This document shows, piece by piece, positions 36,207-60,614 of a DNA stretch of 64,000 nucleotides. The notes beneath the pieces are model-generated. The model did not search any database and had not been told where the DNA came from. It was given only the letters and a program-made list of their open reading frames with translations. Positions within the stretch are counted from its first letter, which is position 1, and the number at the start of each line of letters is the position of its first letter. Origin of the DNA: an uncultured Acidobacteriota bacterium (GTDB lineage: Bacteria; Acidobacteriota; Terriglobia; Terriglobales; Acidobacteriaceae); assembly GCA_963815925.1 (NCBI GenBank), contig CAWFIV010000007.1:43313-107312 (forward strand), written 5' to 3'. Both the position numbers and the translations under genes were made by a program.

Positions 36207-36969
36207 ACAGGATGCTCGCTTGCAGACGCAGGTCCGATGGCGTGCAACGCTCGTGGCTGTGTTATTGGCGATTCCGCTCCTATGGTTAAGAGCAGATTCG
36301 TCGGCGCAGCAGTCCGCCGCGGAACCTCCCGTTCGCGTTCCATCGAATGTGGCATGGACGCATGAAACGCTTGCGCTGGTTTCCCGGGGCGATGCATTTC
36401 GCGGGCTGATCCTCGCCCGGCGCTGCAGTCATTGCCATGGCGAGGAGGGATTCAGCGCGTCTCCAGACTTCCCGAACCTTGCCGGCGCGGACCGGCTGTC
36501 GTTCTGGAAACAGATGGAGGATTTTCGCTCAGGGAAACGTGCGTCTCCAGTAATGCAAAGCCAGGTCGCGGGACTCTCCACCCGAGACTCAGCGGATTTG
36601 GCTGCGTACTACTCCATGCTGCCCACGGCGAGCGATCCCCAGGACAGCCGGGTGTTTCCCGAAGCGATGAAGGATCCCTCGCGTGCTTCGGTTGCAATCC
36701 GACTCATTCTTTTCGGGGATGGCCAGCGCGGCATTCCGCCATGCCAATCGTGCCATGGCCCCGTCAGTTACGTGAACGGCGCACCGCTGCTCGCGGTTCA
36801 GAACGGAAGTTATTTGGAGGAACAACTTGACAACTTTGCGAACGGGTCGCGCAGCAACGACATCAACGTTCGAATGCGCAGTATCGCGCGGCAGCTGACG
36901 GCGGAGGAGAAAGAGGCGATCGCGGAATACTATGGCGCCGGACTCGGGCCGGGAGTCTACCCAAGATAG
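36193..36969 (+). CDS. dihaem c-type cytochrome (c4-like)
   Basis: aaggagg SD then GTG at 36193, overlapping the previous gene by 14 nt. Signal/TM segment. Two CxxCH motifs (CSHCHG, CQSCHG). Confidence 0.8.
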   Translation: MNPARQDARLQTQVRWRATLVAVLLAIPLLWLRADSSAQQSAAEPPVRVPSNVAWTHETLALVSRGDAFRGLILARRCSHCHGEEGFSASPDFPNLAGADRLSFWKQMEDFRSGKRASPVMQSQVAGLSTRDSADLAAYYSMLPTASDPQDSRVFPEAMKDPSRASVAIRLILFGDGQRGIPPCQSCHGPVSYVNGAPLLAVQNGSYLEEQLDNFANGSRSNDINVRMRSIARQLTAEEKEAIAEYYGAGLGPGVYPR

Positions 36970-37120
36970 CGCAAGGGATTTCTCGAAAAGCTTTGTAAAG
37001 GATGTCACGGGACCGGCTTCTCGCGAAAATAGCGAGAGGAACTCACCGCACAGTTCCCCTGCCACGCTAACGTAACCTCAACGATCACGACGCCATCAAA
37101 ATGGATTTATCGAGGTCGAT

Positions 37121-37825
37121 ATGGAAAAGCTAGTTGCTTTCGCCGCGTCAGTTCTTATGGCTTGGTCCACCACGGCCCAGACCACTGCTAACCCGACAAA
37201 TGCCGAAGCGCCTCAATCCCAGAAACCCGCCAGCGTCCTGCTTCCGGAGCTACAGTTATGCGGATCGGTGCCGACAATGTTTGCGATGCTGGTTAATCAA
37301 GCCGGCCTATCGGGCGGCGTGGCTACGTCGAACGAGGGATGCTCCGATGGTCAGGAGGGGACGGTATCCGTTCCGGCCGGAACCAACTTCGACAAAGCAG
37401 TCGCGCAGGTTGCAAAACTCAGAGCTCCGTCTAAATGGCAAGTCCGGAATGGCGTGGCAAACTTTTTCCCCGGGGGCATTGTACCGCCGTTACTCCTGGT
37501 GCATATCCGTAACTTCGCCTGGGACAAGTCAACCCCCATCCGGGAGGTTCTTGGGCGTTTGCGCCAGTTACCCGAACTGACGGAAGAGGCGTCGAAGCTT
37601 GGGCTACGGGAGGCTCCGATCGAGGGTGGGGCGAGCACGATTTGCATCCGCGGCGATTGCAGTGAAACATCAAAGCCGGAGAAAATTCCAGAGACTGAGG
37701 AAGCTGTTTCGCTGCTTACTGTGCTGAACCGAGTAGTGCAGGCCCACAACGGAGCTGTCTGGAGTTACTCGGAATATCCCTGCGACAATGGCACATTATT
37801 TTCCCTAAACGTCATTGCTGAATGA
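37121..37825 (+). CDS. secreted hypothetical protein
   Basis: Signal peptide MEKLVAFAASVLMAWSTTAQT. No family recognised. Confidence 0.5.
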   Translation: MEKLVAFAASVLMAWSTTAQTTANPTNAEAPQSQKPASVLLPELQLCGSVPTMFAMLVNQAGLSGGVATSNEGCSDGQEGTVSVPAGTNFDKAVAQVAKLRAPSKWQVRNGVANFFPGGIVPPLLLVHIRNFAWDKSTPIREVLGRLRQLPELTEEASKLGLREAPIEGGASTICIRGDCSETSKPEKIPETEEAVSLLTVLNRVVQAHNGAVWSYSEYPCDNGTLFSLNVIAE

Positions 37826-37909
37826 GGGCGCGCTCAGATAACATCTCAGAACGACAACGTTGGTAAGGTCAATGCCATGGTTTTCGGGCGACTACCCGCA
37901 ACCCCAATC

Positions 37910-39973
37910 CTACTTCGTAATTCCGCGGAATTCTTCGTCCATCCACAGCTTGAAGGCGTCCAGGTTCTGCGGGCGCCCGAGGAAGCCGCTGATCAGTTCC
38001 GTGCCAGGCTTGGAGCCTCCGGGTTCCAAAACCGTTTTGCGGTAACGCATCGCAGCTTCTCCGCCCAGCAGGTTGTTCTTGTCGAACTGGCTAAAGAAAT
38101 CCACGGCGATGACTTTGTCGAGCACGTAGGTGTAGTAGTTCGAGGTATAGCCCATCAGGTGGCCGAAGCTGGCGTAGAAGCGATTGCCGTCCACGAACGG
38201 GTACGGATAGAAACGCGTGTAATCGGCGCGGAGCATGGCATCGAGATCGATGGCGTCGGGTGCACGCTCGTGGACATCGAGCGAGTAAGTCGAGTAGAAA
38301 AGTTGGCCCTGCACCCAACTGGCTCGGCCGAAGGCGCTGGCGCGGTTCATGCGATCAATTAGGTCGACGGGAAGCACTTCGTTAGTCTGGTAGTTTTTGG
38401 CAAACGAACGCAGGATGGTGGGATCGCGGAAGAATTCTTCCAGCATTTGCGATGGCGCTTCGACGAAGTCGGTCTCGGTGGAGAATCCGGTGATGCCGCT
38501 CCATTCCTGCTGTCCGCCGAGAATGTTGTGCATGAGATGGCCGAACTCATGGAAGAACGTGACAACATCGTCATACTGCATCAGGCCGGGATCGCCGGGC
38601 TTGCCTCCGGCGAAGTTGCAGATGAGCACGCCTTCGGGCAACTGGCGGCCTTTGATTCCGGGCACGACGGGGCTGGAGCTGAACCATTTGTCTTTGCCGT
38701 CGCGCGGGTGCATGTCGAGATAAACGCGCCCCACCAGTTTGCCTTCATCGAAAACGTTCCACGCGGACACGGACGGATCCCAGACAGGGGCAGCCGTTGC
38801 GGGTTTAAAAGAAAGATGAAAGAGCTTGGCCGCGGTGTCGAGCACTCCTTGTTGCACGCGATCATAAGTGAAGTAGGGCCGCACCGATTGAGAGTCGAAA
38901 TTAAAGGTAGTGCGCGCGTATTGATCGTCCCAATAGAAGCGGCCATAGGCGGGAATGGCAGCGAGGCCGGGCTGCTTCTGACGGGCGAACGCTAGCAGCA
39001 TGTCGTATTCGCGGCGCGATGCAGGGCGGGAGGCGACATCCACTTCGTTCAGAAACGCCTTCATGTTCGCCGCTGATCCGATCATCTGATCGGCCGTCGC
39101 GAGATCGGCGAAGCTGGCGTATCCGAGAATCCTGGCCATTTCGTAGCGGGACTTCAGCACGTCGAGCAGGACGTCCTTATTCACCGGGTAGGCTCGAGTG
39201 GTGTACGCCAGATACATCTTTTTGCGCAAGTCTTCACTGGTGGCGTACGTCATCACGGGCGTGTAATCGGTTTCATCCGTGGAAAGAATGATCGATCCGT
39301 CCGCCTCCGGCTTGTGGGAAGAGATGAAGTCGGCAGGCAGGCCGTCCAATTCGGCTGCGTTCTTGGCGACGATGTGATTGGGATGTTCCTGGATGTTGCG
39401 GCCGAAATTGAGCGCGGCCTCGGTGATGTGATCCTGGAGTTTCTTCACCTGGGCGCGGGTAGCAGCATCTTTATCGACGCCCGCGAGACGGTACTCGAGG
39501 AGCGTCCGTTCGATGTAGTGCTTGGTGGCGGGGTCTGCGCTCGAGATGTCGATTGCGGCGAGTGCCCGGTATACATCCTGATTCAAATAGAGGACGGTAT
39601 TGACCTGCTGGACCTGCTGGGCGAGGGCCTGGCCCGCGTCGCGAACTTCTTTCTGAGGCGCCACGGCGAACATGAGATACGCCTCGGAGCCAGCCAAGCC
39701 AAGTTCATTCTGGGCGTTGTCGAAGGGGCGCAGAGTGTTCTCGATCGTGCGTGGAGTTTTCGCTGCGAGCAATTCGTCGACGTACTTTTGTTCCTTGGCG
39801 ATGTGGTCGCCAACCCATTTTTCCGCGGAAGCGCGATTCAGGGTTCCAACCCAGATGTGAAGCGGATCGCTTTGGGCGAAGCCCCGCGAGTGCGCGGAAA
39901 CCAGAAACAAGCCAATCCACAGGCCCGTCAGAAACACACCGCGAAATGCCTGGGAACGATGAGAATGCGACAT
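37910..39973 (-). CDS. M3-family zinc metallopeptidase (oligopeptidase/dipeptidyl carboxypeptidase-like), secreted
   Basis: HEXXH in FFHEFGHLMH and a downstream EAPSQMLE glutamate motif. Start set at MSHSHRSQAFRGVFLTGLWIGLFLV. Confidence 0.9.
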   Translation of the reverse strand: MSHSHRSQAFRGVFLTGLWIGLFLVSAHSRGFAQSDPLHIWVGTLNRASAEKWVGDHIAKEQKYVDELLAAKTPRTIENTLRPFDNAQNELGLAGSEAYLMFAVAPQKEVRDAGQALAQQVQQVNTVLYLNQDVYRALAAIDISSADPATKHYIERTLLEYRLAGVDKDAATRAQVKKLQDHITEAALNFGRNIQEHPNHIVAKNAAELDGLPADFISSHKPEADGSIILSTDETDYTPVMTYATSEDLRKKMYLAYTTRAYPVNKDVLLDVLKSRYEMARILGYASFADLATADQMIGSAANMKAFLNEVDVASRPASRREYDMLLAFARQKQPGLAAIPAYGRFYWDDQYARTTFNFDSQSVRPYFTYDRVQQGVLDTAAKLFHLSFKPATAAPVWDPSVSAWNVFDEGKLVGRVYLDMHPRDGKDKWFSSSPVVPGIKGRQLPEGVLICNFAGGKPGDPGLMQYDDVVTFFHEFGHLMHNILGGQQEWSGITGFSTETDFVEAPSQMLEEFFRDPTILRSFAKNYQTNEVLPVDLIDRMNRASAFGRASWVQGQLFYSTYSLDVHERAPDAIDLDAMLRADYTRFYPYPFVDGNRFYASFGHLMGYTSNYYTYVLDKVIAVDFFSQFDKNNLLGGEAAMRYRKTVLEPGGSKPGTELISGFLGRPQNLDAFKLWMDEEFRGITK

Positions 39974-40105
39974 GAGGGCCTCCGCAAAAAAGTTAGACTC
40001 GCGAAACACAAATCGGTGAGTAGAGGATTATAGCGTTTCTAAGAGAAGGTTGAGGTGTTGCGGAGCAATCAAGCTGGAAGTGTTGTTGTTATTCCGGCGG
40101 TTCAG

Positions 40106-42166
40106 TCACCGCATTTCCAAAGAGACTACATCGCCGTTCGTCAATCCTCCGGGCTTGTAGTTCACCGTAACCTGGCGGTCGCGCCATTCGCAGGAGAAGT
40201 CATCGGCGCCGATCAGGACCAGCGATTTGTAATCGGGGGCGCGCAGCTTCAGCGTTGAGCCTCCGGAAGCGACGGTCAGAATCGCCGCAGGACTAGTCGA
40301 GCAGTCCACTGTGACGAGGCGGCCTTTGACGAACTTCGTGGGACGCGCGTCGGCCGTTGTAGTTGTGTTTTCGTCGGCGGCGCGCTTGGCGGCATCTTCT
40401 TCCAGCACATCGAATGGCGATTTCTGTGGCTCGAGTTTGGGTTGCGACACGTTGGCTGCGCCCAGCGGGATGCCGTATTTGCGCTCAGATCCGGCCTTCT
40501 CTTGCAATTCGCTTGCGAGTGTGGCGATGTCTGGATCGTCGCTGGTTTTCAGACGATCGAGCAGGACCTGCGCCGCGTCCCATTTCTTGCTGGCTACGTA
40601 AATCTGAGCCAGGTGGTAAGTGAAGAACTGATTGCGCGGGCTTAGGTTCATGGCAGCGCGCTCGGACTGCATGGCGGCGGGAGTGCTTCCGCCTTCATTA
40701 CGCGCCACCGCCAGCAGGTCGTAAGCGCCAGCCATTTCCGGATACCACTCGAGCACCGCCCTCAGATCCATCATCATGTTAGGGAGACCCTGCATGTCGG
40801 TGTGTTTGGACTGGGCAACGCGGTACTTCAGAATCGAGAGGTAATAACGGAGCCACATGTCGCGCTGATTGAGTGTTGCGGCGTCGGACAATTCGGTCGC
40901 AGCCTGGTCGAAGTCGCTGTGCTGGATTTCGTCCCAGGCTAGGACGCGATGGGCGAGCGGACTGCCGATGGCGTTGCTGGGAAGCTGGTCAGGATCCTCG
41001 GCGGGTCGTTTCTCCTGGTTCTTAGCTTCAAACTTCTTATCCGCGACGGTGGGCACGGTGGCCAATGCATGCAATTGTTGCAGGCCGGCGTCGCGGCGCT
41101 CGGGGATGCGAACTTCTACCTCAGCGTAGAGTGCGCGCTCGTCGTCCTCGGGCAAAGGCTTGGCGGTAATCACCGCATCGTCGGGACCGACGGGAGCAGC
41201 GAAGCGATAAACCTGGCCGGGGTTGGTGGCGCTAGCCTTGGAGTCGGTTTGCCGGGCGGCGTCGAGCGCAGTGAGTGCCCCGCTTTGCGAGTGGAAGTAC
41301 TCTTTCACCGCCTGTTCCAGTTGCGCCGAACTCATGCCGTAGGCCTGCTGGATGGCGTCTTCGACCGGGACATGCTGGTTAAGAGTGAGACCGAAGTAGG
41401 CTCCAGTTTCCGGCAGCTTCTTCTCGTGCAGAAGATAGTGCATGACGATCCACGACTCGGCTTCGAACAGAGCGTGACGCGTGTCTTGGTTGGGTGTCGA
41501 GGAATCGCGCTTCATGGTGAAGAGCTCGGGCAGCGGGAGCCAGGCCTGCGCGACGAGAACATCGGTGAGCGACTTGGGCGAACGAGCCTCGCGATGGTTG
41601 CCGCCGGGGTTTTCATTAACAGGTGGAAGCAATCCGGGGTCACCGCCGAGCTCGACCTGCTTGTCGTTGAGGCGAATCGAACTGAAATATTCGAGGAGGC
41701 CTTCGTCGAACCATGCCTGGGCAGGCGGGTAGTTGTAATTCAGCAGCATGGCCGCGAAGTCATGGGCGACGGCGCACCATGCGTCGTCTTCGGAAAGATT
41801 GAGTGCGATGAAATCCTGATCTTCGCCGGCAAGAAAGAATCCGGGGACGTCGATGGGCTGGCCGTTCTGTAGCGGCGCGAGCTGGTAGTAGGACTTGTCA
41901 TTGTTGAACGCGAGGATGGTGAGTGGCACTGACTGGTTGAGGCGATCTTTTCCCAGCAGTTGGGCAAAGACTGAACGCATCTGTTCGAAGCGCAGGGCAA
42001 CTTCGCGGCCTCGCTTGTCCCCGGCGTCGGTGATAACGGTGACGTGCGTCGAGTGGATTTCGAGCCAAGGCGGTTCGGCAGCTGGGGCCGAGGCGGGCAA
42101 CGCAAGACACAAACCAAGCGATACTGCCACGAAGAATGGAACGCGATTGCGGTTCAAGCCTGTCAT
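40106..42166 (-). CDS. large secreted hypothetical protein with helical-repeat (TPR-like) middle part and C-terminal beta domain
   Basis: Signal peptide (FFVAVSLGLCLALPASAPA). 686 aa with no catalytic motif I can defend. Confidence 0.6.
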   Translation of the reverse strand: MTGLNRNRVPFFVAVSLGLCLALPASAPAAEPPWLEIHSTHVTVITDAGDKRGREVALRFEQMRSVFAQLLGKDRLNQSVPLTILAFNNDKSYYQLAPLQNGQPIDVPGFFLAGEDQDFIALNLSEDDAWCAVAHDFAAMLLNYNYPPAQAWFDEGLLEYFSSIRLNDKQVELGGDPGLLPPVNENPGGNHREARSPKSLTDVLVAQAWLPLPELFTMKRDSSTPNQDTRHALFEAESWIVMHYLLHEKKLPETGAYFGLTLNQHVPVEDAIQQAYGMSSAQLEQAVKEYFHSQSGALTALDAARQTDSKASATNPGQVYRFAAPVGPDDAVITAKPLPEDDERALYAEVEVRIPERRDAGLQQLHALATVPTVADKKFEAKNQEKRPAEDPDQLPSNAIGSPLAHRVLAWDEIQHSDFDQAATELSDAATLNQRDMWLRYYLSILKYRVAQSKHTDMQGLPNMMMDLRAVLEWYPEMAGAYDLLAVARNEGGSTPAAMQSERAAMNLSPRNQFFTYHLAQIYVASKKWDAAQVLLDRLKTSDDPDIATLASELQEKAGSERKYGIPLGAANVSQPKLEPQKSPFDVLEEDAAKRAADENTTTTADARPTKFVKGRLVTVDCSTSPAAILTVASGGSTLKLRAPDYKSLVLIGADDFSCEWRDRQVTVNYKPGGLTNGDVVSLEMR

Positions 42167-42540
42167 AGGCCGCCACCAGACTACCTGATAAGGAAAGCGT
42201 AACAGAATCCAGTCGTGGTTTCAGCAGTCTGCGTGGCGCAGAATCGCCATTGTGGAGCAGAAAAAAGCGGCATGGGTTGCTCCCACGCCGCCCGGAAGAT
42301 TCTCGCTGTTTACGGCACCACGAAGTTCACGAGTGTCTTGCAGGGCGCGGACTTCTTCACCATCGAGAATTTTGGCTTGCCGTCGAATATTGTGCTAGGC
42401 AACGGGTTTGGATTTGTCAGTAAGACCGCGGAAACATCGCACGGTATCGCTGGAAAACTCGGGGTTTCAGCATACGCACGTGGAGAGCAAGATGAAGGTG
42501 GTCGGGCCCGTCGAATGAACACGGCGAACCGGATCAACCT

Positions 42541-43074
42541 CTACTGGTCAGCGCCGCGACGCAGGATTTGAACCTCCATCGGCTGCAGATTGACCCGCAC
42601 CACGTGGAGAGGGCCTTGTCCGGTCGAGCCATCCACTTCCTGCACCGTGGCTGCGCCCTGGGCGATGAATCGAACGGGTTGAGGTGCGGTCGCGCCCGCT
42701 TGATTACTGTACAAGATGTTAAACACGTCGCCGTCCGCGCTGAGCACGATCTCCACGATGACGTCGAGTTGCTGCGACTGCGCGGGGTTGGCGTTGGCCG
42801 CGACGAGAACTTCCTGATCGTTCAGAATCCGCGAGAAAGCGACCACCCCTTGAGGGAATCCAGAGACTCCGAACGTGACTCCGTCTCCAGAGAGCGGACG
42901 AAAATAGAAGCGTCCGTAACGCAGCGCAGACTGCTGCGCCCGCACGGCGGCGATCTGCTGGATGTGCTGGTAAAAAACGCTCTGCTCGCTAAAGCCGGGA
43001 CCTCCCCAGAGCGCTTCGCGTACCGCAGGATCGCTGCCGACGCCGGGAGAATCCCACCGGCAGTTCCACGGCGT
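42541..43074 (-). pseudogene. C-terminal fragment of a GH13 (alpha-amylase-family) protein, 5'-truncated
   Basis: The minus frame reads ...DSPGVGSDPAVREALWGGPGFSEQSVFYQHIQQIAAVRAQQSALRYGRFYFRP..., then a beta-sandwich C-domain. It is closed upstream by TGA at 43075-43077, and the catalytic barrel is absent. Confidence 0.65.
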
Positions 43075-43080
43075 TCATGA

Positions 43081-44629
43081 TTAACGGAACAATTCAAGAC
43101 GTTTATGTACGGGTCTTACATCATCGACCCGTCCAGCCGGCTCACCATGATGGCAAGCGCGTCCTACAGCGACTTTCGAGGTGCCCAATACGCCGGGCGT
43201 TGGCATCGGGAACGGCTCCCGGGGGCGATACCTTGCGCTCGCCATGACACCCGGCAACTGTTCCGCTCCGGGCACTTTCAATTCCGCCAACAACAACGAA
43301 AATCAAAACGAGCAGAATTATTACACGCGTCCTGACTTACCAGAAATCCGCCGGCGATTTGGACTTTCAGATCTCCGCCTTTGGCCGCGAGAGCGAACAG
43401 CATTTCACGCCGGACCCGATCGGCGACCTCTACCTCAACGGCGAGGCCAGCGAGGTGCATCGCTACCTTTACTCCGCCGGCTTGCAAGCCGACGCCAGTT
43501 ATCAATTGGGCGACTACCATACCATCCGCGCCGGCGGATCAGTTCCTGGCCGAGGGCGACTCAAAATAATACCTCCACCACCGTCTTCAACCTGGACGCC
43601 AGCGGCAATCCGACCGACCCTGGCAAATATCACGGACAACCATCCCCTCTACGGTCTGTTTGCCGGGCTGTATTTGCAGGATGAATGGAAAATCTTCCCC
43701 ACGCTCACCCTCAATGTCGGCGCGCGCTTCGACGTTTTCTCTTCCTCCTTTGACGACGAAAATCAACTCAGCCCGCGCGCCAATCTCATCTATAAACCGT
43801 TCAAATCGACCACGCTGCACGCCGGTTACTCGCGTTACTTCACCCCGCCGCCCGTGGAGGACGTCGGCGGCGGCAGCCTGGCGAAATTCGCCGGCACCTC
43901 CGGCGCCCCGGCCACGTTTCAGGACGATCCGGTCAAAGCCGAGCGCGCCAACTATTACGACGCCGGCATCACCCAGACCATTCTTCCCGGCTGGAACATG
44001 GGCTTGGACGGTTACTACAAAACCGCCCAGCAACCAACTCGATGACGGGTTGTTCGGGCAGACGCTTATTCTCTCGGCCTTCAACTATGAAAAAGGCCGG
44101 GTCTATGGGCTTGGAATTCACGACCTCTTACGAGAACGAACGGCTTCAGCGCCTATGCCAACGCCGCTTATTCCGTCGCCCAGGGCGAAAATTGGGACTC
44201 GGCGCAATTCCTGTTTGATCCGGCGCGACATGGCCTACGTCCAGAATCATTGGATTTATCTGGACCACGACCAGGCTTATAGCGGCACGGCCGGCGTTTC
44301 TTATCGTTACAACGAGTCGCGCACGACCAGCACCATGGGTTACATGGACGTGGTTGCCGGCAGCGGATTGCGGCAGGACGCGACGGCTGCCGATCGGCGC
44401 AGCAACCCATCCCCAACGGCGCGTCCGTTCCGGACTATTACTCGCTCAACGTCGGCGTGCGAACAAACCTTCAAAGTGGCGCACAAGCAATATTTGAAAG
44501 CCCGACTCGATGTCGTCAACGTGACCGACAACACTTATGAGTTGCGCAGCGGATCGGGCGTGGGCGTCAATGCCGCCGCAATATGGCGAGCGCCGCGGGA
44601 TTTTTGGTTCGTTGAGTTACTCGTTCTAA
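43081..44629 (+). pseudogene. TonB-dependent receptor, 5'-truncated, with at least 7 frame changes
   Basis: Barrel segments lie in alternating frames: YGSYIIDPSSRLTMMASASYSDF / EVPNTPGVGIGNG...NENQNEQNYYT / LTYQKSAGDLDFQISAFGRESEQHF / TDNHPLYGLFAGLYLQDEWKIFPTLTLNVGARFD...HAGYSRYFTPPP / ...PRGIFGSLSYSF-stop (terminal Phe). Confidence 0.8.
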
Positions 44630-44702
44630 CATATTGACGGAAGCCGGGCATATCCGAAAAACTGTCTTATGGCCGCTGCCGCCTATCAATTAAAGTCCGA
44701 AC

Positions 44703-45377
44703 TTGGCCCGGGTTTGTCTGCCCGCGCCGGAGCGCGACGCCTATCGGCGGCTGGCCTGGATCAATTCCATCTGCTTCTTTTTCCTGATCGTCGGCGTGTC
44801 CGGCGCGCGCTCCCGGTTGCCTGTTCCGAACCGTCCCGCCGCCGATCGAACAGCCGGTGCCGATCATCATCCAGCCGCTGCCGCCGACGCCGCCGCCCCG
44901 ACGGAAGCAAAACAAATGGAGCCGCAAAACGAGGACCAAAAGCGAAATCGCGCCGCGAGTCGTGGTGGTGACGCCGGATTCCCCGGCCATCAATTTTTCC
45001 GTGCCGACCATCGGCAATGTCGTTGTTCCCAATGCCGTCGCCCGCGCCCCGCCGGTCGCGCCGCTCAAGGCCGACCGCGCCGGTTCACCACGAGCCGACA
45101 GACCATCGGCAGCACAGGCGAAGGCGGAGACCGCCCCCAGCCGCCCTACCCGGAGATGGCCCTCAAATTCGGCCAGCAAGGCACGGTCGTGTTGTTGTTG
45201 ACAGTCGATGACAGTCGGCCTGGTGCAGTCCATCGATCAAGGAAACTTCCGGCTCGCCCATTCTGGACCGAAGCGCCGTCGAATTCGTCAAACGCCATTG
45301 GATTGCCGCCGCCCATGAGCGGCGGCCATGTTTTTCAAGCCACCATTTCTACCAGCTCAATGAACCGATTAGCATGA
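44703..45377 (+). pseudogene. tonB: TonB-like energy transducer, frameshifted
   Basis: TM anchor YRRLAWINSICFFFLIVGV. Pro-rich spacer IIIQPLPPTPPP in another frame. C-terminal domain PPYPEMALKFGQQGTVVLLLTVDD back in the first frame. Confidence 0.7.
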
Positions 45378-45437
45378 AGATTAAGATTAAGATTAGGAGC
45401 GGAAACACTCTTCTTTTCCTAATCTTAATCTTAATCT
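45378..45437. repeat. 21-bp perfect hairpin built from tandem AAGATT hexamers
   Basis: agattaagattaagattagga (45378-45398) pairs with tcctaatcttaatcttaatct (45417-45437). 18-nt loop. Starts directly after the tonB stop. Confidence 0.8.
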
Positions 45438-45468
45438 AATCCTAATCTCCCCTCTCCATTTACACTTT

Positions 45469-46136
45469 ATGATGGCAAATATTGTTTTTGATTTTTTTCT
45501 CAAAGGCGGCCCGGTCATGGTGGCCGATCCTCATTTGCGCGCTGGTCGCCGTGGCCGTGGTGGGCGAGCGCTCGTTTTGGTGGCTGCGCGAAGGCCGCCG
45601 CCGCGACCCCAAGAAACTGGAGCAAATCCTGGCCGCGCTGGAAAACGGCGACATCCCCGCCGCCATCCAAATCGCCGAAGGCTCGCACGACCCGGTCATC
45701 CGCATGATTCACCGCGGCATTGAACCACGTCCACACCTCCATGCAAGGCGCGTTGCAATTGGCCGCGGGCATCGAATTGGAACGCGCCGGGCGGTTTCTG
45801 ACCGTCATGGACACGCTGGTCACGCTGGCGCCGCTGCTCGGCCTGCTGGGGACCGTCACCGGCTTGATGCGCGCCTTCCTCAGCGTCGGCAGCGCGGAAT
45901 TGTCGGTCGTCGCGGTCACCGGCGGCATCGGCGAGGCGTTGATCGCCACGGCCTGCGGCCTGGGCATCGCCATTTTTTCGCTCATCCCGTTCAATTATTT
46001 CACCGGCCGGCTGGCCCGCCTGCAATTTGAACTGGAAGCCGCGGCCACCAACGTCGAAATGATGGTCGCGCCAATGCAGTGCGGAAGCCGTCAAATTGGA
46101 CCAAGCGCCGTACCGGCTCCCGTCGAATCGGCCTGA
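45469..46136 (+). pseudogene. exbB: MotA/TolQ/ExbB-family proton channel, two frame changes
   Basis: MMANIVFDFFLKGGPVM | WPILICALVAVAVVGERSFWW... | ...LTVMDTLVTLAPLLGLLGTVTGLMRAF...GGIGEALIATACGLGIAIFSLIPFNYF. Shifts near 45520 and 45715. Confidence 0.8.
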
Positions 46137-46140
46137 GCAA

Positions 46141-46565
46141 ATGAAGCTGTCCTCTCCAGTCAAGCGCCGCCATTCGCGCATCGAGATCATTCCGTTGATC
46201 GACATCATGTTCTTTCTGCTGGCCTCCTTCATGATGGTCAGCCTGCAAATGGACCGCACCCAAAACATCAAGGTCAATCTGCCCGCCGCCAGCATGGCCC
46301 GCGCCGATTACAAGCCGGACATGATCAACATCGCCGTGGACAAGGCCGGCGCCGTCTGGCTGGAGAAAAAGGAAATCACCCTGCCGGAATTGGACCAGGT
46401 CCTGAGCAACCGCTTCCGCGTCGACACCAATCTGCCGGTCTATATCAGCGGCGACGCCGCCACGCTGCACGGCTCGATGGTGCGATGTGCTGGAGGCCGT
46501 GCGCCGCGCCGGCGTGCAGAAAGTGGCCTTCATGGTCGACGGGCGCGCACCAACCAGGCCAGCCC
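46141..46565 (+). pseudogene. exbD: ExbD/TolR-family protein, frame change near the 3' end
   Basis: MKLSSPVKRRHSRIEIIPLIDIMFFLLASFMMVSLQM...NLPVYISGDAATLHGSMV, then DVLEAVRRAGVQKVAFMV in another frame. Confidence 0.75.
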
Positions 46566-46995
46566 ATGAAAATCCGCTCCCCCATTGCCCGCAAGCGCAC
46601 CCGCCTGGAGATCATTCCGCTGATTGACATCATGTTTTTTCTCCTCGCCTCCTTCATGATGGTCAGCCTGCAAATGCAAAAAGTCCGCACGCTCAAAGCC
46701 AGCCTGCCCACCGCCACCCTGGCCACCTCCACCAAGAAACCCGACATCATCAACCTCAAAGTCGATCGCGACGGCCAGGTTCGAATTGGACAAGCAAACT
46801 GCTGTCCTTCCCGCGAACTTGCTCACCGTCCTGTCCAACCGCCATCAGCTCAACACCAACGTTCCCGTCTATCTCAGCGGCAGCCGCGACGCCACGCACG
46901 GCGCGATGATGTATGTGCTGGATTTCGTCAAACGCGCCGGCATCCAGCACGTGGCCGTCGCCATCAAGGCCGATCCATCCCGCCCGGCCGAATAA
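46566..46995 (+). pseudogene. exbD: second ExbD/TolR-family protein, one frame change (~46780)
   Basis: MKIRSPIARKRTRLEIIPLIDIMFFLLASFMMVSLQM...IINLKVDRDGQV | ...VPVYLSGSRDATHGAMMYVLDFVKRAGIQHVAVAIKADPSRPAE-stop. Confidence 0.75.
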
Positions 46996-46997
46996 CC

Positions 46998-47543
46998 ATG
47001 AAAAATTTTCAACAAAACCTGTTCATCGTCCTGGCCCTCGGCCTGTGCGGCACTGTGCGCCTGGCAATGGTACTTGCAGACCGTCCAGCTCAACACCATC
47101 GAGAGACTCGAACCAGATCATTTATCAACAATCCGCCGACATCCAGGGCTACACCAACTCCATCAACGCATGGACGCCGAAATCGCCGGACTGCAGACCG
47201 CATCACCGAGCTCAAGCAAACCGCCATGAGCAACGACCATGGCCATCTCACCGAGAAACGCGAAGTCGCCCGCCTGCAATCCGCCGGCGACATCATGAGC
47301 AACGAGATCGTCCAATACAAGGCGCGTCGACAAATCTTCTGGAAGCCAAACTCAAAGAAGCCTACGACGGCATAAAGAAGCAAAACGACGCCATCGCAAA
47401 ACTGGTCGCCGAGCGCGACGAATTCGTCAGGCAAATTCAACGACAGCGTCAAGGCGCGAAACGAACTGGTGGAGAAATACAACGACCTGGTCCAACAAAT
47501 GAAAAAACTCCAGGACGCCGAAAATTCCAAAGGGAGCAAATAA
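46998..47543 (+). pseudogene. membrane-anchored coiled-coil protein, several frame changes
   Basis: MKNFQQNLFIVLALGLC..., then heptad-like segments in three frames (IIYQQSADIQGYTNSINA / ITELKQTAMSNDH / LLEAKLKEAYDGIKKQNDAIAKLVAERDEFVRQ / ELVEKYNDLVQQMKKLQDAENSKGSK-stop). Confidence 0.5.
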
Positions 47544-47660
47544 CCCCTTCCGATGACCAATAACAGATTCCCAATGACCAATTCTCAATCGAGAAGTCAG
47601 AAATCCCAAGGTGAATTGCTTCGCCAACAAGACTTACCCAAGAAAGTGAAATGCACCTGA

Positions 47661-47697
47661 GCAACGGTTTTGCAACGTTTTGCGACGTTTACCGTTT
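47661..47697 (+). repeat. tandem ~10-nt direct repeats (GCRACGTTTT x3.5)
   Basis: gcaacggtttt gcaacgtttt gcgacgttt accgttt. Located 160 nt upstream of the histidine-kinase start. Confidence 0.6.
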
Positions 47698-47855
47698 GAT
47701 TTCCCTGTGTTCGGGCTGTAAACTGCCGTGTTGTCGGGTGTCAAACGAAGCGAGGTGTCATTGCCGAACAAACCGCATTCGCATTTTGGCCTGGTTACGC
47801 TGGCTCTCGGGCCAGCGGCGCGGTTTCTCGTCTCTGAAATGGTTCCATCTTCCCC

Positions 47856-49452
47856 ATGAAACAAATCCCGCCTTCCGACGACAGCCTCAGCAATGTCGGC
47901 AAAGAACGATTCCAGCTCATCGCCCGCGCCGGCAACGATGTCATTTGGGATTGGAATATCCAAAGCGGCGTCTCATGGCAGAGCCACACTCTCCGTCAGT
48001 TCGGCTACTCCGAAGCCACCCAGCCGGGCGAACGCCCTTGGCTTGATCACGCCCATCCGGACCACTTCCAACGCGTGCTCAAGGGCCTCGAAGATGTCCT
48101 CGCCGGCCAGACGCTGTATTGGTCGGACGAATACCCATTCCATCGCCGCGACGGCGCCGTTGTCGAAGTTTTCAATCGCGCTTGCGTGGTCCGCAATGCC
48201 GAAGGACGCGCCATCCGAATGGTCGGAGCGATGATCGATATAACCGATCGCAATAAAGCAAGGGAAACAATCAACGCGCAACGAGCAGACCACCAGAAGA
48301 TCGAAACCCAATTCCTGCGCGCCCAGAGGTTGGAGAGCATTGGCGCGCAGGTCGGGCGCATTGCTCACGACCTCAACAATGTCTTTTCGCCCATCCTGAT
48401 GGGCGTGCCGTTCTTGAGGGATATTGCCGGCGATCCTTCCAGCCGCAAAATCCTGGCCGACATGCGAATCCAGCGCCGAGCGTGGCGTCGCGGATTGTCA
48501 AAGAGTTTTTGACACTGGCTCTGCGGCGCCCGAAACCGAGCGCACCCGGCTCCGGCCCAATCAACTTATTCAGGAAACGGTCAATGTCCTCGGCGAGACT
48601 TTTCCCAAATCCATTCGGGTCAAGACCTCTTGCGATCCTGCGCGTCTGCGAGATCGAAGGCGACGCCATGGAACTTCACCAGGTCCTCCTCAATCTCTGT
48701 GTCAACGCGGGGGATGCGATGCCAGACGGCGGGGGCTTTGACCCTCTCTTCGCACAATGTCACTCTGCAAGAGCCGGTTTTCTGCGCCGGACTCTCCGGC
48801 CCGTCCGGTGAATACGTGCAAATCCAGGTCGCCGATACCGGCATTGGCATGTCCGAGGAACTGCAAACGAAAATATTCCAGCCTTACTTCACCACCAAGG
48901 AGCCCGGGCAAAGGCAGCGGGCCTGGGCCTCTCGACCATCGTGAGAATTCTCCAAAGCCACGGCGCCATGCTCGGCTTGGAAAGCGCCCCGGGACACGGC
49001 ACGGCCTTTTCCATTTATTTTCCCGCCAAACTCCGCCGCCCTCAGACCGATGCCGCTGCCCTCGCGCCCGCGCCGCCCGCCGGCAACCAGAGACTAGTCC
49101 TGCTTGTGGACGATGAGGAGGCGATTCGCGAAATGTGCCAGTTGATCCTGGAAAGCTCCGATTACCGCGTCTTGACCGCCGAAAACGGCGTCGAGGCGCT
49201 GTCGCTGACCGAACGCTACAAAGACGAAATCTCCGCCGCCATAGTGGATATGATGATGCCTGTGATGGACGGCGCGGCTGCGATTCGAGCCATGCCGCTG
49301 GTGCGCGCCGCAATTGAAGATCATCGCCACCAGCGGCCTTTCGCAAAAAGAACAATCCGCCGCCCTGGGTGATGCCGCGCCGGATCATCTTCCTCCAAAA
49401 GCCGTACACCGCGGACCAGTTGGTGGCCGCGCTGGCTGGCGTGCTCCGTTGA
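47856..49452 (+). pseudogene. hybrid PAS sensor histidine kinase / response regulator, at least 5 frame changes
   Basis: PAS (FQLIARAGNDVIWDWN...[10 protein letters not shown]). H-box [13 protein letters not shown]. ATPase N/G boxes ([51 protein letters not shown] implied). Receiver (LVLLVDDEEAIREM...IVDMMMPVMDG...KIIATSG). Segments sit in alternating frames. Confidence 0.8.
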
Positions 49453-49494
49453 CGGCCAATTCCAAACACGCGCTCCGGCGTCACATTCCGATCG

Positions 49495-50899
49495 TCAGTG
49501 CCGCCTCATTTTCCCGTTCCTCGTTCTCACCCCGCCGCTTCCGGCCCCGCTGAACCTGCACCAGGTTGACCGGCAGCCAGGCCTCCCGGAAGGAATCCAG
49601 GTAATCCAGCGACGCCAGCAATCCCGGCGTCGACCGTGTCCAGTTCGCCGGCGCGCCACACCGCATGACGCAGGCATTCCTGATGCGCCATGACCTTTTC
49701 GGCAATGTCCTCGTCGCACAGAAGATTCCCCAGCGTCGGAGTCGCCCGCAACGCCGCCGCAATGTCATCGAGCAGCGGCGTCCTTACTGCGCAGCCCCCT
49801 CTCCAGATGCGGACAACTTCAGCCGGGTTGAAATCAAACCCATGCCGCGCCGAGCCTGCGGCCAGCAGCGCCAAACCCTCCGCGTAAGCAATGATCATCG
49901 CGGCGTGACAGCGCCCCGCGCAATTCATCCAGCACGCTCTCTGCGTCCTCTCCAAAACGCCCTGCGGGATGCCGGAACGGTGTCATAATCAACGATCGCT
50001 GCCGTTCCCGCGCTGAAAAACACTGCGTGCCCAGCGCCGCGTCGATTGTCGGCGTCCGCACCCCCAACTCCCGCGCGCATTGCGAAATCCGCCGGGCCGC
50101 CGCGTCGTTCTTGAGAGCGTTAAGCTTCCCCTTGATCTGGCCCCGCTCCATCCCTTCATCAACGGGATTGAAAACATGCCCGGAAACTTCGGCCAGGTAA
50201 CCGTTGAGAACACCGACGTTCAAGGCGCCGGAGGCATCGCGCAAATTCCTCGCCCCCAAACGCCAGCGTCCGTTGCATCAACTCAAACGTTTCAAACACC
50301 AGTTCCATCAACCCGTATTCGATGCCGGAATGTGCCATGCGCGCAAAGCACGCGGCTGCAGCGGAATCAAAATAGCCGACAGCCGGTTCGCCGTTGACGT
50401 TGGCTGCCAGCGCCTCCAGTATTGGGCGCATCCGCGCGCAGACTTCGCGCCGTCCGCCCGCCATGATGATGATCCCGTCTGCGCCGCCGCATCGCCCCCG
50501 GCGATTCCCAGGCTCATGAACTCGACGGATCGTTCCGACAGCTTCCGGGCGCGACGCTCCGCGTCCTTGAAGTACGAATCTCCAGCGTCAATTATAAGGT
50601 CTCGCGGGGCCAGGTGCGGCAGCAACTCATTAACCATTCCGTCCGTCTGCGCTGCGGTTTCTCCAAAAACAAAAATCGTCCGCGGCCGACTCACCAATCC
50701 GGCCAGTTCAGAAAGGGATCGTGCCTGAAGAAATGGTCCGCCTGCCAGGCCCTGCGGCAAGTTCGCGGGTTGGCGGAGGAGCGCAGTTCCCACGTCGCCA
50801 CCTGAAATAGATGGCTGGAAATATTCTGCGCGACGCTGACTCCACTGCCGAACAAGCCGGCCACGCCAACATCACACTTGCCTGAATCCGAATCCGACA
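49495..50899 (-). pseudogene. gnd: 6-phosphogluconate dehydrogenase (decarboxylating), at least 5 frame changes
   Basis: CDVGVAGLFGSGVSVAQNISSH / IIDAGDSYFKDAERRARKLSERSVEFMSLGIAGG / MAHSGIEYGLMELVFETFELM / GYLAEVSGHVFNPVD / MIIAYAEGLALL...VVRIWRGGC / LDYLDSFREAWLPVNLVQ, on successive minus-strand frames. Confidence 0.8.
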
Positions 50900-51210
50900 T
50901 TTGACCGTCAATCTGCCCAAACATCCAACGACTTTTTGAAATCACAAATTAATAAGAAGCCATTGGCGTTGGTTTTTCCCGATACTCCCGCCGATGCGGC
51001 GGCCGAGTCAACTATTTCGAGCGAAAAGTTATTCACACTCCCGTGCATTTTTGTTGACGCAAGAATAACAGTCGCGCCCTCTCACTCCCACCTGAATCGA
51101 CTATCAGGACATCCCCCACTACCCTCTCTTGTAGCCTACAGATTCCACCCACAACCTGTAGTGCATTTCTCATCCAAGTTGCTTCTACTGGCAGTGACAT
51201 AATCCTTCCG

Positions 51211-51273
51211 TCTCCTGTCTTCTGACCTCTGACCTCTGTCCTCTGACTTCTGTCTTCTGACTTCTGACTTCTG
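51211..51273 (+). repeat. nine tandem heptanucleotides (consensus WCYTCTG)
   Basis: tctcctg tcttctg acctctg acctctg tcctctg acttctg tcttctg acttctg acttctg. No inverted partner seen nearby. Located 305 nt upstream of the repeat-protein start. Confidence 0.85.
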
Positions 51274-51578
51274 TCAATTTGCCCCTGCGAAATGGCTTGC
51301 CAATCCGGGCGGTGGGAAGATCATCACGAAAACAGCCACAAACAATTCATTTACGCCATAAGCAACAAACCAAATGGGAAATCCCGGTTTAGATCAGAGC
51401 CAGTTTCCCCAATTGCGGGAGGTTTGTGCTAAATCAAAAATCATCAACATCAACCGGGGCCACAATGCGCCGTTTTGGCGCGGGCTGGCTAAAATCGGCT
51501 GTGTGTCCAAGCGAAGGCAGTTCTCCCCGCAACTTGGTTTCATTTCCCGTTCAACTCTCAATAACTAAACGAATCATT

Positions 51579-53983
51579 ATGAAAAATCAAATTAAACAAG
51601 CCCTCACCTCGCTGATCCTGTTATCAGCGCTCAACTCAACCGTTTTCGCCCAGGGCACGGCGTTCACATATCAGGGACAGCTCCAGAACAACGGGAGTCC
51701 GGCCAGTGGCACCTACAACCTAACCTTCACACTATTCAACACCAACACCAGTGGTGCGCCTATCGTGGAACCGGTGACCAACAATGCTGTCGTTGTCGCC
51801 AACGGTCAGTTCACGGTGCTGATTGATTTTGGCCCAGGCGTGTTTACGGGCCGACCAACTGGTTGCAGATTGGAGTGGAAACGAACGGCGACAGCAGTTT
51901 CACCACGCTAACGCCGCGTCAGGAATTGACCCCCACGCCGTACGCCATTTACGCGGAAAGCGCCAACACTTTAAGCGGCACGTTGTCGGCCTCTGAATTG
52001 ACCAGCATCGGCAATACCACTGATATAAACGCTCAAAACTTCTTCATTGGTTTTGCGGGCAATTCGACGACCGGTGGTGCGGCTAACACGGCCGCCGGTT
52101 ATATGGCTTTTAACGAGAACACGGGCGGCTCCAACAACACCGCCTATGGCTTCCAAGCGCTTGTCGACAACACGAGTGGCTCGGGCAACACCGGCATTGG
52201 CTTGACGGCCCTTGCCGCCAACAGCAGTGGAATCCAAAATACAGCCGTTGGCGAGGAGGCAATGTATATGGGCGGCAGCAGCATGGGCGGCAGGCTGCCA
52301 TGACAATTCCGCCTTCGGTGTCCTCGCGCTCGGCAACAACCAGGGCTCATTCAACTTGGCCAGTGGCGTGTATGCGCTTTACGGCAACGGCCTGGGCAGC
52401 TACAACACGGCCAACGGCGCATTTGCGCTTTACAGCAACGGCGGCACCGGGAACGGCAACTACAACACGGCCAATGGCTATGAGGCGCTTTACTCCGGCG
52501 GCACCGGGGGCAGCAACGTGGCCGACGGCGCCTTGGCGCTTTACAGCAGCGTGACCGGCGGCAACAACATCGCGCTGGGCCATCAGGCCGGTTACTATAT
52601 CACCTCGGGCAGTTCCAACATTGACATCGGCAACCCGGGTCTGCCCACGGACACCAACCTCATCCGCATTGGCACCGGCCAGACGCAGACGTTCATTGCC
52701 GGCGTCATCAACGGCAACGGCGCGGGTCTGACCAATCTCAACGTGATGAATTTCAGCGGCACCCTTCCACTAACGCAATTGCCGGTCGCGGTGGTGACCA
52801 ACACTGAATCGAATGTCTCGCTGGGCAGTTTGACGCTGGGCAGTAGTTTGGTTTTGTCGGCACCCGCCGCCGTTTATTCCGGCGGCAACAGCCTTTTAAT
52901 TGCCGACAATGACTTTGACTTCTACGCCGGTCCGTTGGCCGGTAATTTTACCACCACTGGTCCCGCTAACACGGGCCTTGGCTTTGGCGCTCTTTCGATG
53001 AACGGCGGCGGCGCATTCAACGCGGCCGTGGGCGCCGGTGCTTTGGGAAAAAACTCCGTTGGAAACAACAACACAGCCTTAGGTTATGAGGCGCTGTACA
53101 ACAACTCAACCGGCTCAAATAATGTGGCCAACGGCTACTGGGCGCTTTTGGCAAACACGAGCGGCTACAACAACACGGCCAATGGCTATGAGGCGCTTTA
53201 CGACAACTCGACCGGCTATCTCAACACGGCCGTGGGCTATAATGCGCTTAACAACAACACGAGCGGCTACGTCAACACGGCCGTGGGTCATGACGCCTTG
53301 AAATTGAATCAAATTGGCAATCAAAACGTGGCCGTGGGCGATTTGGCTATCTCGGCCGAGAACGTCTGGCAACAACAACACGGCTGTGGGCGATTCTGCA
53401 GGCTCCAGCATTACCTCCGGCAGCAACAACATTTACATTGGCAATTTGGGAAATTCCAGCCGAGAGCGGCGTCATTCGCATCGGCACGCCAGGGACGCAG
53501 ACCCAGACCTACATGGCCGGGCACATTGAAGTCTGACCTGCAATACCATCACCATTACCGGAGGCTCCGACCTGGCCGAGCCGTTTGCCATCTCCACGGC
53601 GGACCAGACGGTTTCCGAGGGCGCGGTGGTGGTGATTGACGAGGCGAATCCGGGCCAGTTGAAATTGACCGACCAGCCTTACGACACCCGCGTGGCCGGC
53701 GTGGTCAGCGGCGCCAACGGCATTCATCCCGGCATCCAGATGCAGCAGCAGGGCTTGCTCGAAGGCGGCAAGAATGTGGCGCTCACCGGCCGCGTTTATG
53801 TTCAGGCCGACACCTCCAACGGGGCCATCAAACCGGGCGACTTGCTGACCACTTCCAGCACTCCGGGCCGAAGCGATGAAAGTCACCGATCACGTCCGCG
53901 CGCAGGGCGCGATTCTGGGCAAAGCCATGACCGAGTTAACGGCAGGCAAGGGCATGGTGCTGGTGCTGGTCACGTTGCAATAA
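51579..53983 (+). pseudogene. large secreted repeat protein (YadA-head-like NTAxG..AL repeats) with conserved C-terminal domain, at least 5 frame changes
   Basis: Signal MKNQIKQALTSLILLSALNSTVFAQG. Dozens of NTA.G..AL..NT.G..N units. C-terminus ITITGGSDLAEPF...VVVIDEANPGQLKLTDQPYDTRVAGVVSGA...GRVYVQADTSNGAIKPGDLLTTSSTPG...GKGMVLVLVTLQ-stop. Confidence 0.65.
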
Positions 53984-54011
53984 CCGCCTGGTCGTTCATG
54001 AAAGAAACCTG

Positions 54012-55737
54012 ATGAAAACTCAAAATTTAGTGCTCCGTGGAGCAGTTATACGGACCGGCTGGGCGGTTGTCTTATTGGGATTACTGGTCCCCTGCCGGGC
54101 TGGCACCTGGACACAACTGACCCAACCCTCACCCGGCGCTGTCAACCTGATGCTCTTGCTCCCCAATGGGACGGTCATGGCTAAGGAAAACGACGATTAC
54201 ACTTATAATAATAATTGGTACCTGTTGACCCCGGATGGTCAAGGTCACTACGCCGACGGCCAGTGGACGACTTTGAACCCGATGAATTACAGCCGTCTGT
54301 GCTTCTCGTCGCAAGTGCTGCCCAACAATCAAGTCTTTGTGGCCGGTGGCGAGTACGGGACCGGGGGGTCCACAGCCGAGTTGTTTGATATCGTCTCCGG
54401 GCAGTGGACCGTGGTCAATCCGCCAAGTTCCATAGTGAATCCTACCAACGCCACTATCCTTGATGCGAATTCGGTAATGTTGGCCGGTGGAAACGTGATG
54501 ATTCAGCCGGTCCGAGGGATCACGTCCATATTCTTCAATCCCAATTCAAATAGTTGGTCGTCTTTAGGTTCGCCAGACTATCCGTCAGCAGGCTGAGAAT
54601 AGTTGGGTTAAATTGGCGGACGGCAGCATCCTTACGGTCGATCCTATAGTAACCCTTACCAACGGTGTTTCATATAACGGCAATGGCACCAATTCGGAAC
54701 GGTACCATTCCCGGCTTGACAAAATGGATCCCGGACGCAGACCTACCCGTATCCACATTTGCGGCGCTGGCAGGCTATTTTGGTGAAACCGGACCCGCGT
54801 TTCTGCTGCCGAATGGCAATGCGTTTTTCCTGGGCGGCAACGGCAATACTGCCATCTACACGCCTTCCGGGAACACCAATCAAGGGAATGGCAGGAAGGG
54901 GCGAATATACCCCAGGAGTTGGTTTCTGCCGACACTCCCGCAGCCATGATGCCCAACGGCAAGATTCTTTGTGCGGTCGCCGCGATCCCCTATATTGACG
55001 ACAGCGACATGCCTCAATTCCCCAGGCCAACCAGCTTTTTTGAATATGATTACACCAGCAATTCATTCACGCAGGTAGGCAGTCCCACGGGCGGCCTGAC
55101 CGACGACATTCCTACTTACATGGCCACCATGCTCGTGCTGCCGGATGGAACCGTGCTCTACTCCCATATGGGCACCGACCTGTACGTTTATCAGCCCGAC
55201 CCGCCATCGTTAGCCTCAGGCAAGCCAGCCATCACCAGCATCAGCCTGAACCCGGATGGTTCATACCACCTCGTTGGTACCGGGCTTAACGGCATCTCCC
55301 AGGGGGCGGCTTATGGCGACGATGCGCAGATGGACAGTAACTACCCGCTTGTGCGCCTGACGGATTCCAGCAACAACGTCTATTATGGCAGCACCTACAA
55401 TTGGAGCAGCACCGGCGTCCAGACCGGCACCAACCTGGTGACCACGGAATTTACTGTGCCGGTTTCCGGGGGTCAATATTCTCTGGCGGTGATCGCCAAT
55501 GGCATCGCCTCGGATCCAGTCACATTCTTTGGGCCGGTCTGGGTGGATTTCAACTACAGTGGAATTTTCCAGCTCGGCACCTACGATCTTCCATACTCGA
55601 CACTGGCTTCGGGAGTAAGCGCCGTGACCACCGGCGGAACGATTTTCATCAAGCCCGGTCAAAGCTCGGAGACCCTGACGATTTCAAAGGCGATGACGAT
55701 TAACGCAGTTGGCGGCTTGGCTACCATCGGTCAATGA
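54012..55737 (+). pseudogene. secreted kelch/galactose-oxidase-like beta-propeller protein, at least 3 frame changes
   Basis: Signal peptide present. LLLPNGTVM, VLPNNQVFVAGGEYG, AAMMPNGKILCAV, LVLPDGTVLYSH blades. C-terminal Ig-like part (SISLNPDGSYHLVGTGLNGISQGAAYGDD). Confidence 0.55.
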
Positions 55738-55753
55738 AGGGACAATTACAGTG

Positions 55754-57713: not shown

Positions 57714-58020
57714 ACACTTATTCTTGGCGGTCGATTTTTATTTCGCAGTTTTCAGCGTCCGCCGTGATCCGATCTCCCGCTTTGACCTCGCCGTTTAACA
57801 GTTTCGCCGCCCGTCGGCGCGTCAATGTAAGGCTCGCCCTGTTGCCCTCTGCGCTCCACATTGACCCCCGCCCGGCTCCGGGAGTTTTGCGTTTAGGATT
57901 CGGCTTGTGGAGAATTGCTTGCGACAAGAATGGCCATCCGGGTGACAATGCCATTAAGGCATTGCATGCGGTCAGCGCGCGCTTTAACGTGGCCTTTAGA
58001 CGGTGCGGTTTACTTTACTT

Positions 58021-60552: not shown

Positions 60553-60592
60553 TTTTTTTGATCTTTCTTTCAAATAATGTTTGACTTTTATA

Positions 60593-60612: not shown

Positions 60613-60614
60613 CC

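Follow-up and report, generated by a model that had tools for sequence, protein, structure and literature searches.

Bacterial pseudogenes are expected to show a deletion bias, and decay is expected to bring nonsense mutations and a loss of the third-position pattern of coding sequence. Acquired genomic islands that contain such genes place DNA of foreign composition and taxonomy beside native DNA. Broken reading frames are also found in low-coverage long-read consensus sequence, where 1-nt indels split genes whose coding sequence is otherwise sound, and the usual signature of nanopore error is the deletion of bases in homopolymers. A further class of long-read artefact is the inter-genome chimeric contig of metagenome assemblies, which is marked by an abrupt, repeat-free join and by a change in sequence quality at that join. 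Chimeric nanopore reads, interspecies chimeras included, make up 1.7-8.2% of datasets (PMC10025935), and the authors of an assembler count chimeric reads among the causes of chimeric assemblies (bioRxiv 10.1101/2025.09.05.674543).

Here we describe a junction between two truncated genes near position 43,045 of a 64-kb stretch of DNA (the window, by which we mean the whole stretch analysed) assigned to an uncultured Acidobacteriota bacterium. An earlier note on this DNA had considered a chimeric assembly join and a decaying foreign segment as explanations. Our comparison of each side with its relatives favors the former: we put the probability at roughly nine in ten that the junction arose in assembly, with Acidobacteriota sequence joined blunt to Verrucomicrobiota sequence in a chimeric contig that spans two phyla.

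Results

Two genes are cut mid-frame and joined blunt

The earlier note had seen two 5'-truncated genes standing head to head within 43040-43110, and this arrangement is indeed present, with a GH13 fragment on the minus strand and a TonB-dependent receptor (TBDR) fragment on the plus strand. Compared base by base with six GH13 and six TBDR relatives, the window shows GH13 homology through 43045 and TBDR homology from 43047. In the nucleotide alignments the match of all GH13 relatives ends between 43038 and 43045, and that of nearly all close TBDR relatives starts at 43047. We place the breakpoint at 43045|43047, with a single G at 43046 that lies outside both homology blocks. This is about 30 nt to the left of 43075-43081, where the junction had first been placed, and the two features that marked that position turn out to be side effects of the join. 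The TGA at 43075-43077 is simply the stop that the GH13 frame reaches after running past 43045 into antisense TBDR sequence. The frame that appears to open at 43081 does so because 1-nt deletions at 43073 and 43083 push the TBDR frame out of register. Both genes are cut mid-ORF, and because the join interrupts a GH13 gene to its left and a TBDR gene to its right, two 5'-truncated genes face each other.

The GH13 fragment (42544-43045, minus strand) is the 3' end of an alpha-amylase-family gene. Delimited by the C-termini of intact 609-aa orthologues, with which it shares 77-84% amino acid identity, it comprises the last 167 of about 609 codons. In one intact orthologue (L002, 8675-10504, 609 aa) the PF00128 domain occupies residues 42-444. 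The window retains residues 443-609 only, so the catalytic domain is wholly gone, which agrees with the earlier reading that the entire catalytic barrel was missing, and the only remaining profile match is a weak one to Malt_amylase_C. The fragment has no private indels relative to seven relatives. Nothing above 84% identity, other than the fragment itself, was found that could represent an intact GH13 copy from the same strain. Judged by its domain content, the left fragment is the remnant of a GH13 gene and not a functional GH13 member.

The TBDR fragment (43047-44634, plus strand), delimited by alignment to L076 and by a Pfam TonB_dep_Rec_b-barrel match, corresponds to the 3' 70% of its gene, codons 220-740, interrupted by many 1-nt indels. 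Window position 43047 aligns to position 10658 of L076, 219 codons into a 740-aa gene. Going by the usual architecture of these receptors, the N-terminus that is missing would be the normal position of the plug; no strong Plug match is recorded for the closest TBDR relatives. The barrel domain (PF00593) is present, the plug region is absent and the frame is broken many times, and the fragment does not amount to a plug followed by a 22-strand barrel. The fragment had been described as lacking both the plug and most of the barrel. The first part holds, but the second does not, as the protein lacks only the first 219 of 740 residues and about 70% of it, including most of the barrel, is kept. Once corrected for indels, the TBDR reads through 520 codons with no stops and has full-length homologues at up to 86% identity.

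What lies at the join itself? A repeat search found neither direct nor inverted repeats at the junction, and there is no microhomology beyond 1 nt. The landmarks that would mark the edge of an acquired island (tRNA, integrase, IS end, direct repeats) were not found at the join; no tRNA was found anywhere in the 64-kb window, and the sole IS lies about 17 kb into the right segment. No sequence beyond chance 15-20-mers was found to be shared between the two sides. The cumulative GC skew changes direction near 43 kb. This flip prompted us to consider a fold-back (inverted-duplicate) chimera. We rejected this possibility, as the left side does not recur on the right in reverse-complement form and the two have no sequence in common.

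Relatives and composition assign the two sides to different phyla

The left segment (1-43045) is an accurate stretch of Acidobacteriota-type sequence, Sulfotelmatobacter-like and within Terriglobia. More than 40 consecutive genes had been reported here; we count about 35 uninterrupted ones, plus one natural gene remnant at 42350-42466, near the join. When GTDB species genomes were scanned with the GH13 fragment, 12 loci emerged, mostly titled Candidatus Sulfotelmatobacter, Acidobacteriaceae or Terriglobia. These loci carry orthologues of the adjoining 686-aa TPR gene, and two of them (L008 and L005) also carry genes further left in the same order. More generally, the gene order of the left side is common to the GTDB MAG loci L001-L011, at 66-84% nucleotide identity. 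Additionally, the FolD protein of the left side falls into a 90%-identity cluster with Candidatus Sulfotelmatobacter proteins.

The right segment (43047-64000) is Limisphaerales-like by its named homologues, its colinearity with a metagenome contig and its composition. In metagenomes the TBDR fragment matched 63 loci, and the TBDR homologues to which NCBI gives a name are 'Limisphaerales bacterium' (81%) and 'Verrucomicrobiota bacterium' (78% and 76%). The TBDR-TonB-ExbB-ExbD-ExbD cluster is intact in L076-L079, one of which (L077) is a Limisphaerales MAG contig. The most informative relative is L082 (JBLFKN010040986.1), a 51-kb NCBI metagenome contig whose positions 1-16206 are colinear with window positions 43997-60229 and in which 13 of 13 genes across the colinear stretch are intact.

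In the window, the TBDR fragment is followed on the plus strand by genes for TonB, ExbB, ExbD, ExbD and a 180-aa protein (44669-47543; Pfam MotA_ExbB and ExbD), all frameshifted. Next come a PAS/histidine kinase/receiver hybrid (47856-49452, plus strand), which is 98.2% identical to L082 and has 10 one-nt insertions, and the 6-phosphogluconate dehydrogenase gene gnd (49481-51048, minus strand), which is 98.1% identical to L082, has seven frame-breaking indels and matches 6PGD and NAD_binding_2 over several frames. A run of plus-strand genes (51579-60229) then encodes an 800-aa repeat protein, a 568-aa Kelch-like protein, a 655-aa protein, a 476-aa PQQ/EF-hand propeller and the first 191 codons of a 407-aa gene, and again all are frameshifted. 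The propeller, at 58 kb, has named Verrucomicrobiota homologues. The alignment with L082 stops at 60229, where an IS element sits (60223-62155, plus strand). Its frameshifted DDE transposase gives weak matches to DDE_Tnp_1 and DUF772, and the element has 86% nucleotide identity to positions 10744-12670 of L016. The cargo of the right side is ordinary core chromosome (gnd, TonB-ExbBD, a two-component system), arranged in the same order as in a Verrucomicrobiota contig.

NCBI taxonomy places the names of the left relatives in Acidobacteriota and those of the right relatives in Verrucomicrobiota, and the relatives of either side carry no genes of the other side within 10 kb. Composition needs more care. 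Both genomes are about 58% GC and similar in overall composition. The comparison of tetranucleotides between the two sides, which had been suggested for this junction, gave two answers. An untrained z-score correlation detected no break (0.60-0.67 between left and right, 0.63 between the two left halves), whereas a trained score flips sign at the join. The latter is a log-likelihood ratio trained on Acidobacteriota versus Verrucomicrobiota loci and applied to 4-kb chunks, most of which have no homologue in the training loci. All 11 chunks up to 44 kb score from +16 to +40 and all five from 44 kb onward score from -24 to -44; the leave-one-out controls lie at +24 to +41 and -24 to -59. We therefore do not take the untrained result as evidence against a chimera, since that test is underpowered and the trained score separates the sides cleanly.

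Judged by GTDB titles, the FolD cluster, named homologues and the trained score, the left side is Acidobacteriota, the right side is Verrucomicrobiota and the flanks are from different organisms. This bears out the taxonomic switch that the earlier note had proposed. The proteins of the two sides, assigned separately by named homologues or record titles, belong to different phyla and not to the same lineage.

Frame-breaking indels begin at the join

The earlier note had also set a clean left side against a right side full of frameshifts, and the numbers agree with it. Left of the join, the longest stop-to-stop ORF has 1,573 codons and ORFs of 200 codons or more contain 85% of the bases, whereas on the right no ORF exceeds 477 codons. 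Segmentation by codon usage yields 1.02 coding segments per kb on the left (44 in all, averaging 286 aa) and 3.25 per kb on the right (68 in all, averaging 91 aa). In the frame plot, the best frame right of the join switches every few hundred bases. Private 1-nt indels number 0 in the 2.5 kb aligned on the left and 30 in the 4.4 kb aligned on the right.

The accuracy of the left side can be read from an independent assembly of the Logan collection, whose matches cover the interior of this side only. One contig of run ERR11523662 (L080) matches 36501-40424 at 100% over 3,924 bp with no gaps, and a second from the same run (L081) matches 4171-7047 at 99.93% with two mismatches and no gaps. Together they cover 6,801 bp of the left side with two mismatches and no indels. 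Moreover, no private 1-nt indels were found in the 2.5 kb compared with relatives (40106-42082 and 42555-43045), which brings the left side to 0 indels in more than 9 kb compared.

On the right side, comparison with L082 over 14.6 kb of coding sequence reveals 88 indels that break the frame, with all 13 genes affected. Most of them are +1 insertions (59), and 11 are -1 deletions. Within the cluster next to the TBDR, TonB has 11 frame-breaking indels, ExbB has 6, the two ExbD genes have 2 each and the 180-aa gene has 6. Comparison with seven relatives over the first 4.4 kb (43047-47491) identified 30 private 1-nt indels in the window (24 insertions, 6 deletions), in addition to 2-nt events, against 0-1 per relative. 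Private indels set in at 43073, 27 nt to the right of the join, and indel density on this side is about 6 per kb. Taxonomy, the trained tetranucleotide score and the error rate switch together, none of them more than 27 nt from the breakpoint.

Are these frameshifts the product of decay? Genes that are nearly identical to an intact relative are still broken: the 800-aa gene is 97.1% identical and has seven indels, the Kelch-like gene is 99.5% identical and has three, and the 407-aa gene is 100% identical over 575 nt and has one. The histidine kinase gene has its 10 insertions beside only 29 substitutions, and evolution cannot plausibly explain that many frameshifts with so few substitutions in one gene. 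When the indels are removed, four stops remain in 4,837 codons, and the differences from L082 at codon positions 1, 2 and 3 number 386, 253 and 749. For TBDR, ExbB and ExbD, the comparison of the window with a relative resembles that of one relative with another. Neither nonsense mutations nor a relaxed codon-position pattern nor a deletion bias marks the right side as decayed. Judging by these patterns, the right side is a set of functional genes under consensus noise, not decaying pseudogenes.

The insertions do not cluster at homopolymers: 7 of 23 are homopolymer-adjacent, compared with 10.2 expected at random. We also considered errors at methylation motifs, as some of the 24 private insertions lie in CGA or TCGA, and rejected this source because the enrichment is weak and the larger set looks random. 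In the near-identical genes the few substitutions are non-synonymous about as often as synonymous, which suggests an added component of substitution errors on the right side, amounting to a few tenths of a percent.

Products of both sides share one public contig

The products of both sides are already in the public databases. Exact matches to eight left products (P0244, P0245, P0246 and P0261-P0265, including the 134-aa GH13 remnant) are recorded by NCBI and ENA on a 109,232-bp contig, and exact matches to seven right products (P0121, P0266, P0386, P0401, P0402, P0407 and P0409) are likewise recorded on a 109,232-bp contig. Exact-sequence look-ups gave a single contig for the product of the remnant (P0264) and for those of the right side, and P0121 contains the frameshifted tail that is present in the window. 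Since exact products of both sides lie on one public contig, the chimera was not made by cutting out the window.

Discussion

We propose that this junction is an artefact of assembly. The phylum switch, the blunt join free of landmarks and the step in error rate at the join all favor the chimeric join that had been offered as one option. The left side would come from an abundant, well-covered Acidobacteriota genome and the right side from an unrelated, rare and poorly covered Verrucomicrobiota genome, and the error step would then reflect a collapse in read depth. The consensus of the right side would be near single-read quality, with an error of roughly 1% made up of about 0.6% random indels and perhaps 0.3-0.5% substitutions. 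The likeliest seed would be a long read that was itself chimeric, or else an overhang of low coverage, which the assembler may have accepted. A blunt junction without repeats favors a chimeric read over a repeat-driven error in the assembly graph. Several of the relatives come from a soil project that used nanopore sequencing, Flye and Medaka, which is circumstantial for this contig.

Could the junction instead be real? To our knowledge, blunt cross-phylum insertions on the scale of at least 21 kb are extremely rare. A junction carried by a rare subpopulation of Sulfotelmatobacter-like cells, which would have acquired at least 21 kb of Verrucomicrobiota DNA very recently by blunt illegitimate recombination, would likewise leave the left side accurate and the right side noisy, because few reads would cover the foreign part and many the shared left part. 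A genuine spanning read and a chimeric read also look the same from sequence alone. If true, this reading would mean that cross-phylum recombination has been caught in the act. We nevertheless consider it very unlikely. Both genes are cut blunt and mid-ORF with no integrase, IS end, tRNA, direct repeat or microhomology above 1 nt, the cargo is core chromosome in its native Verrucomicrobiota order, and chimeric reads are common (1.7-8.2%; PMC10025935). A transfer that had become fixed in an Acidobacteriota genome and then decayed into pseudogenes, the other option of the earlier note, would account for the foreign composition and taxonomy of the right side and for the truncated genes at its border. 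Such a history is contradicted by frameshifts in genes 98-100% identical to an intact relative, by an excess of insertions over deletions (59 to 11) that runs against the deletion bias of pseudogenes, by insertions that are not of the slippage type, and by only four stops in 4,837 corrected codons together with divergence concentrated at third positions. Moreover, one genome at one depth should not change its consensus accuracy within 27 nt. We regard fixation followed by decay as highly improbable.

A scar left by a deletion or inversion in one genome, combined with uneven polishing, would fit the turn of the cumulative GC skew at about 43 kb, and the natural remnant at 42350-42466 indicates that deletions do occur in this neighborhood. 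Against a scar of this kind, named homologues, gene order and the trained composition score place the flanks in different phyla, and no relative of one side carries genes of the other side within 10 kb. In our judgment it is scarcely credible.

What does an artefactual join mean for those who use the contig? It offers no new element or mechanism to biology, and its practical value lies in flagging contamination and fake pseudogenes. In the deposited 109-kb contig at least 21 kb comes from another phylum, and there are dozens of frameshifted gene fragments, some of which (P0121, P0266, P0401, P0402 and P0407, for example) are already separate entries in protein databases. Such contigs can give false signals of horizontal transfer and of pseudogenes, inflate the counts of novel proteins, and mislead both the taxonomic assignment and the metabolic reconstruction of MAGs. 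The case is also instructive for detection. Untrained tetranucleotides missed this cross-phylum chimera, whereas error density, relatives and a trained score located the join to the base.

How does the locus compare with known systems? Like the acquired genomic islands that contain pseudogenes, it has foreign composition and taxonomy beside native DNA and broken genes. However, it has no boundary elements, its cargo is core chromosome in native order, and its indel spectrum and few nonsense mutations are unlike those of decay. It shares with the fragmented ORFs of low-coverage long-read consensus the 1-nt indels that split genes of sound coding sequence, but here the errors lie on one side of a breakpoint and are not concentrated in homopolymers. 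In its abrupt, repeat-free join and in the change of quality at that join, the locus resembles the inter-genome chimeric contigs of long-read metagenomes, from which it differs in its bias toward +1 insertions, an insertion-biased and homopolymer-independent pattern that is not the usual one of nanopore error.

The Acidobacteriota part and the join

The cumulative GC skew of the window climbs steadily up to ~43 kb and declines thereafter. Such a turn at ~43,000 resembles a replication origin or terminus, but its source is the chimeric join, at which two segments of opposite skew meet.

Within the Acidobacteriota part, positions 42350-42466 (plus strand) carry the remnant of a large TonB-dependent-like outer-membrane protein of the OMP_b-brl type, of which the last ~39 codons are left, the last dozen of them degraded. 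The remnant shares 51-62% identity with the C-terminus of a 1144-aa gene that in relatives sits between the GH13 gene and a 686-aa TPR gene. Relative to three Acidobacteriota loci (L002, L007 and L008), at least ~3.3 kb is absent from the window at this point. The remnant looks like the leftover of a natural deletion within the accurate Acidobacteriota part.

The Verrucomicrobiota arm

The indel spectrum in 43047-60229 is unusual, with 59 +1 insertions versus 11 -1 deletions. The insertions are not concentrated at homopolymers (7 of 23 lie adjacent to one, against 10.2 expected at random), and the density of events along the same interval is uneven: ~26 fall in 56.1-57.7 kb and zero in 57.6-58.8 kb.

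Identity to the colinear metagenome contig JBLFKN010040986.1 (L082), whose genes are intact, is mosaic when compared over 43998-60229. It is 76-87% across the TonB/Exb cluster, 97-100% in 47856-55737 and 59655-60229, and 78-85% in 55754-59453. Strains of Verrucomicrobiota may have recombined with one another to give this pattern, or the consensus may combine more than one strain.

Colinearity with L082 ends at 60229, within a 407-aa gene. The interval 60223-62155 holds an IS element, frameshifted too, whose matches to DDE_Tnp_1 and DUF772 are weak; a Verrucomicrobiota metagenome contig has a copy of it at 86% identity (L016, 10744-12670). The stop at 60229 marks either insertion of the IS in this strain or a second, within-phylum breakpoint. 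Beside the IS lie small, apparently intact genes: one for a 71-aa protein (60337-60552, minus strand), whose 90%-identity cluster has a variant found on 62 contigs that come from many different metagenomes; the other is a HicA-toxin-like ORF, next to which sits a further small ORF (62252-62569).

How does the frameshifted arm compare with other public assemblies? In a 3.04-Mb public long-read contig (L076; ENA ERZ25039544 contig_2078), the TonB gene at 12230-12924 is called as pieces of 174 and 71 aa, whereas in the Limisphaerales MAG contig L077 it is a single 232-aa gene. Comparable frameshift noise is therefore present in other deposited long-read contigs.
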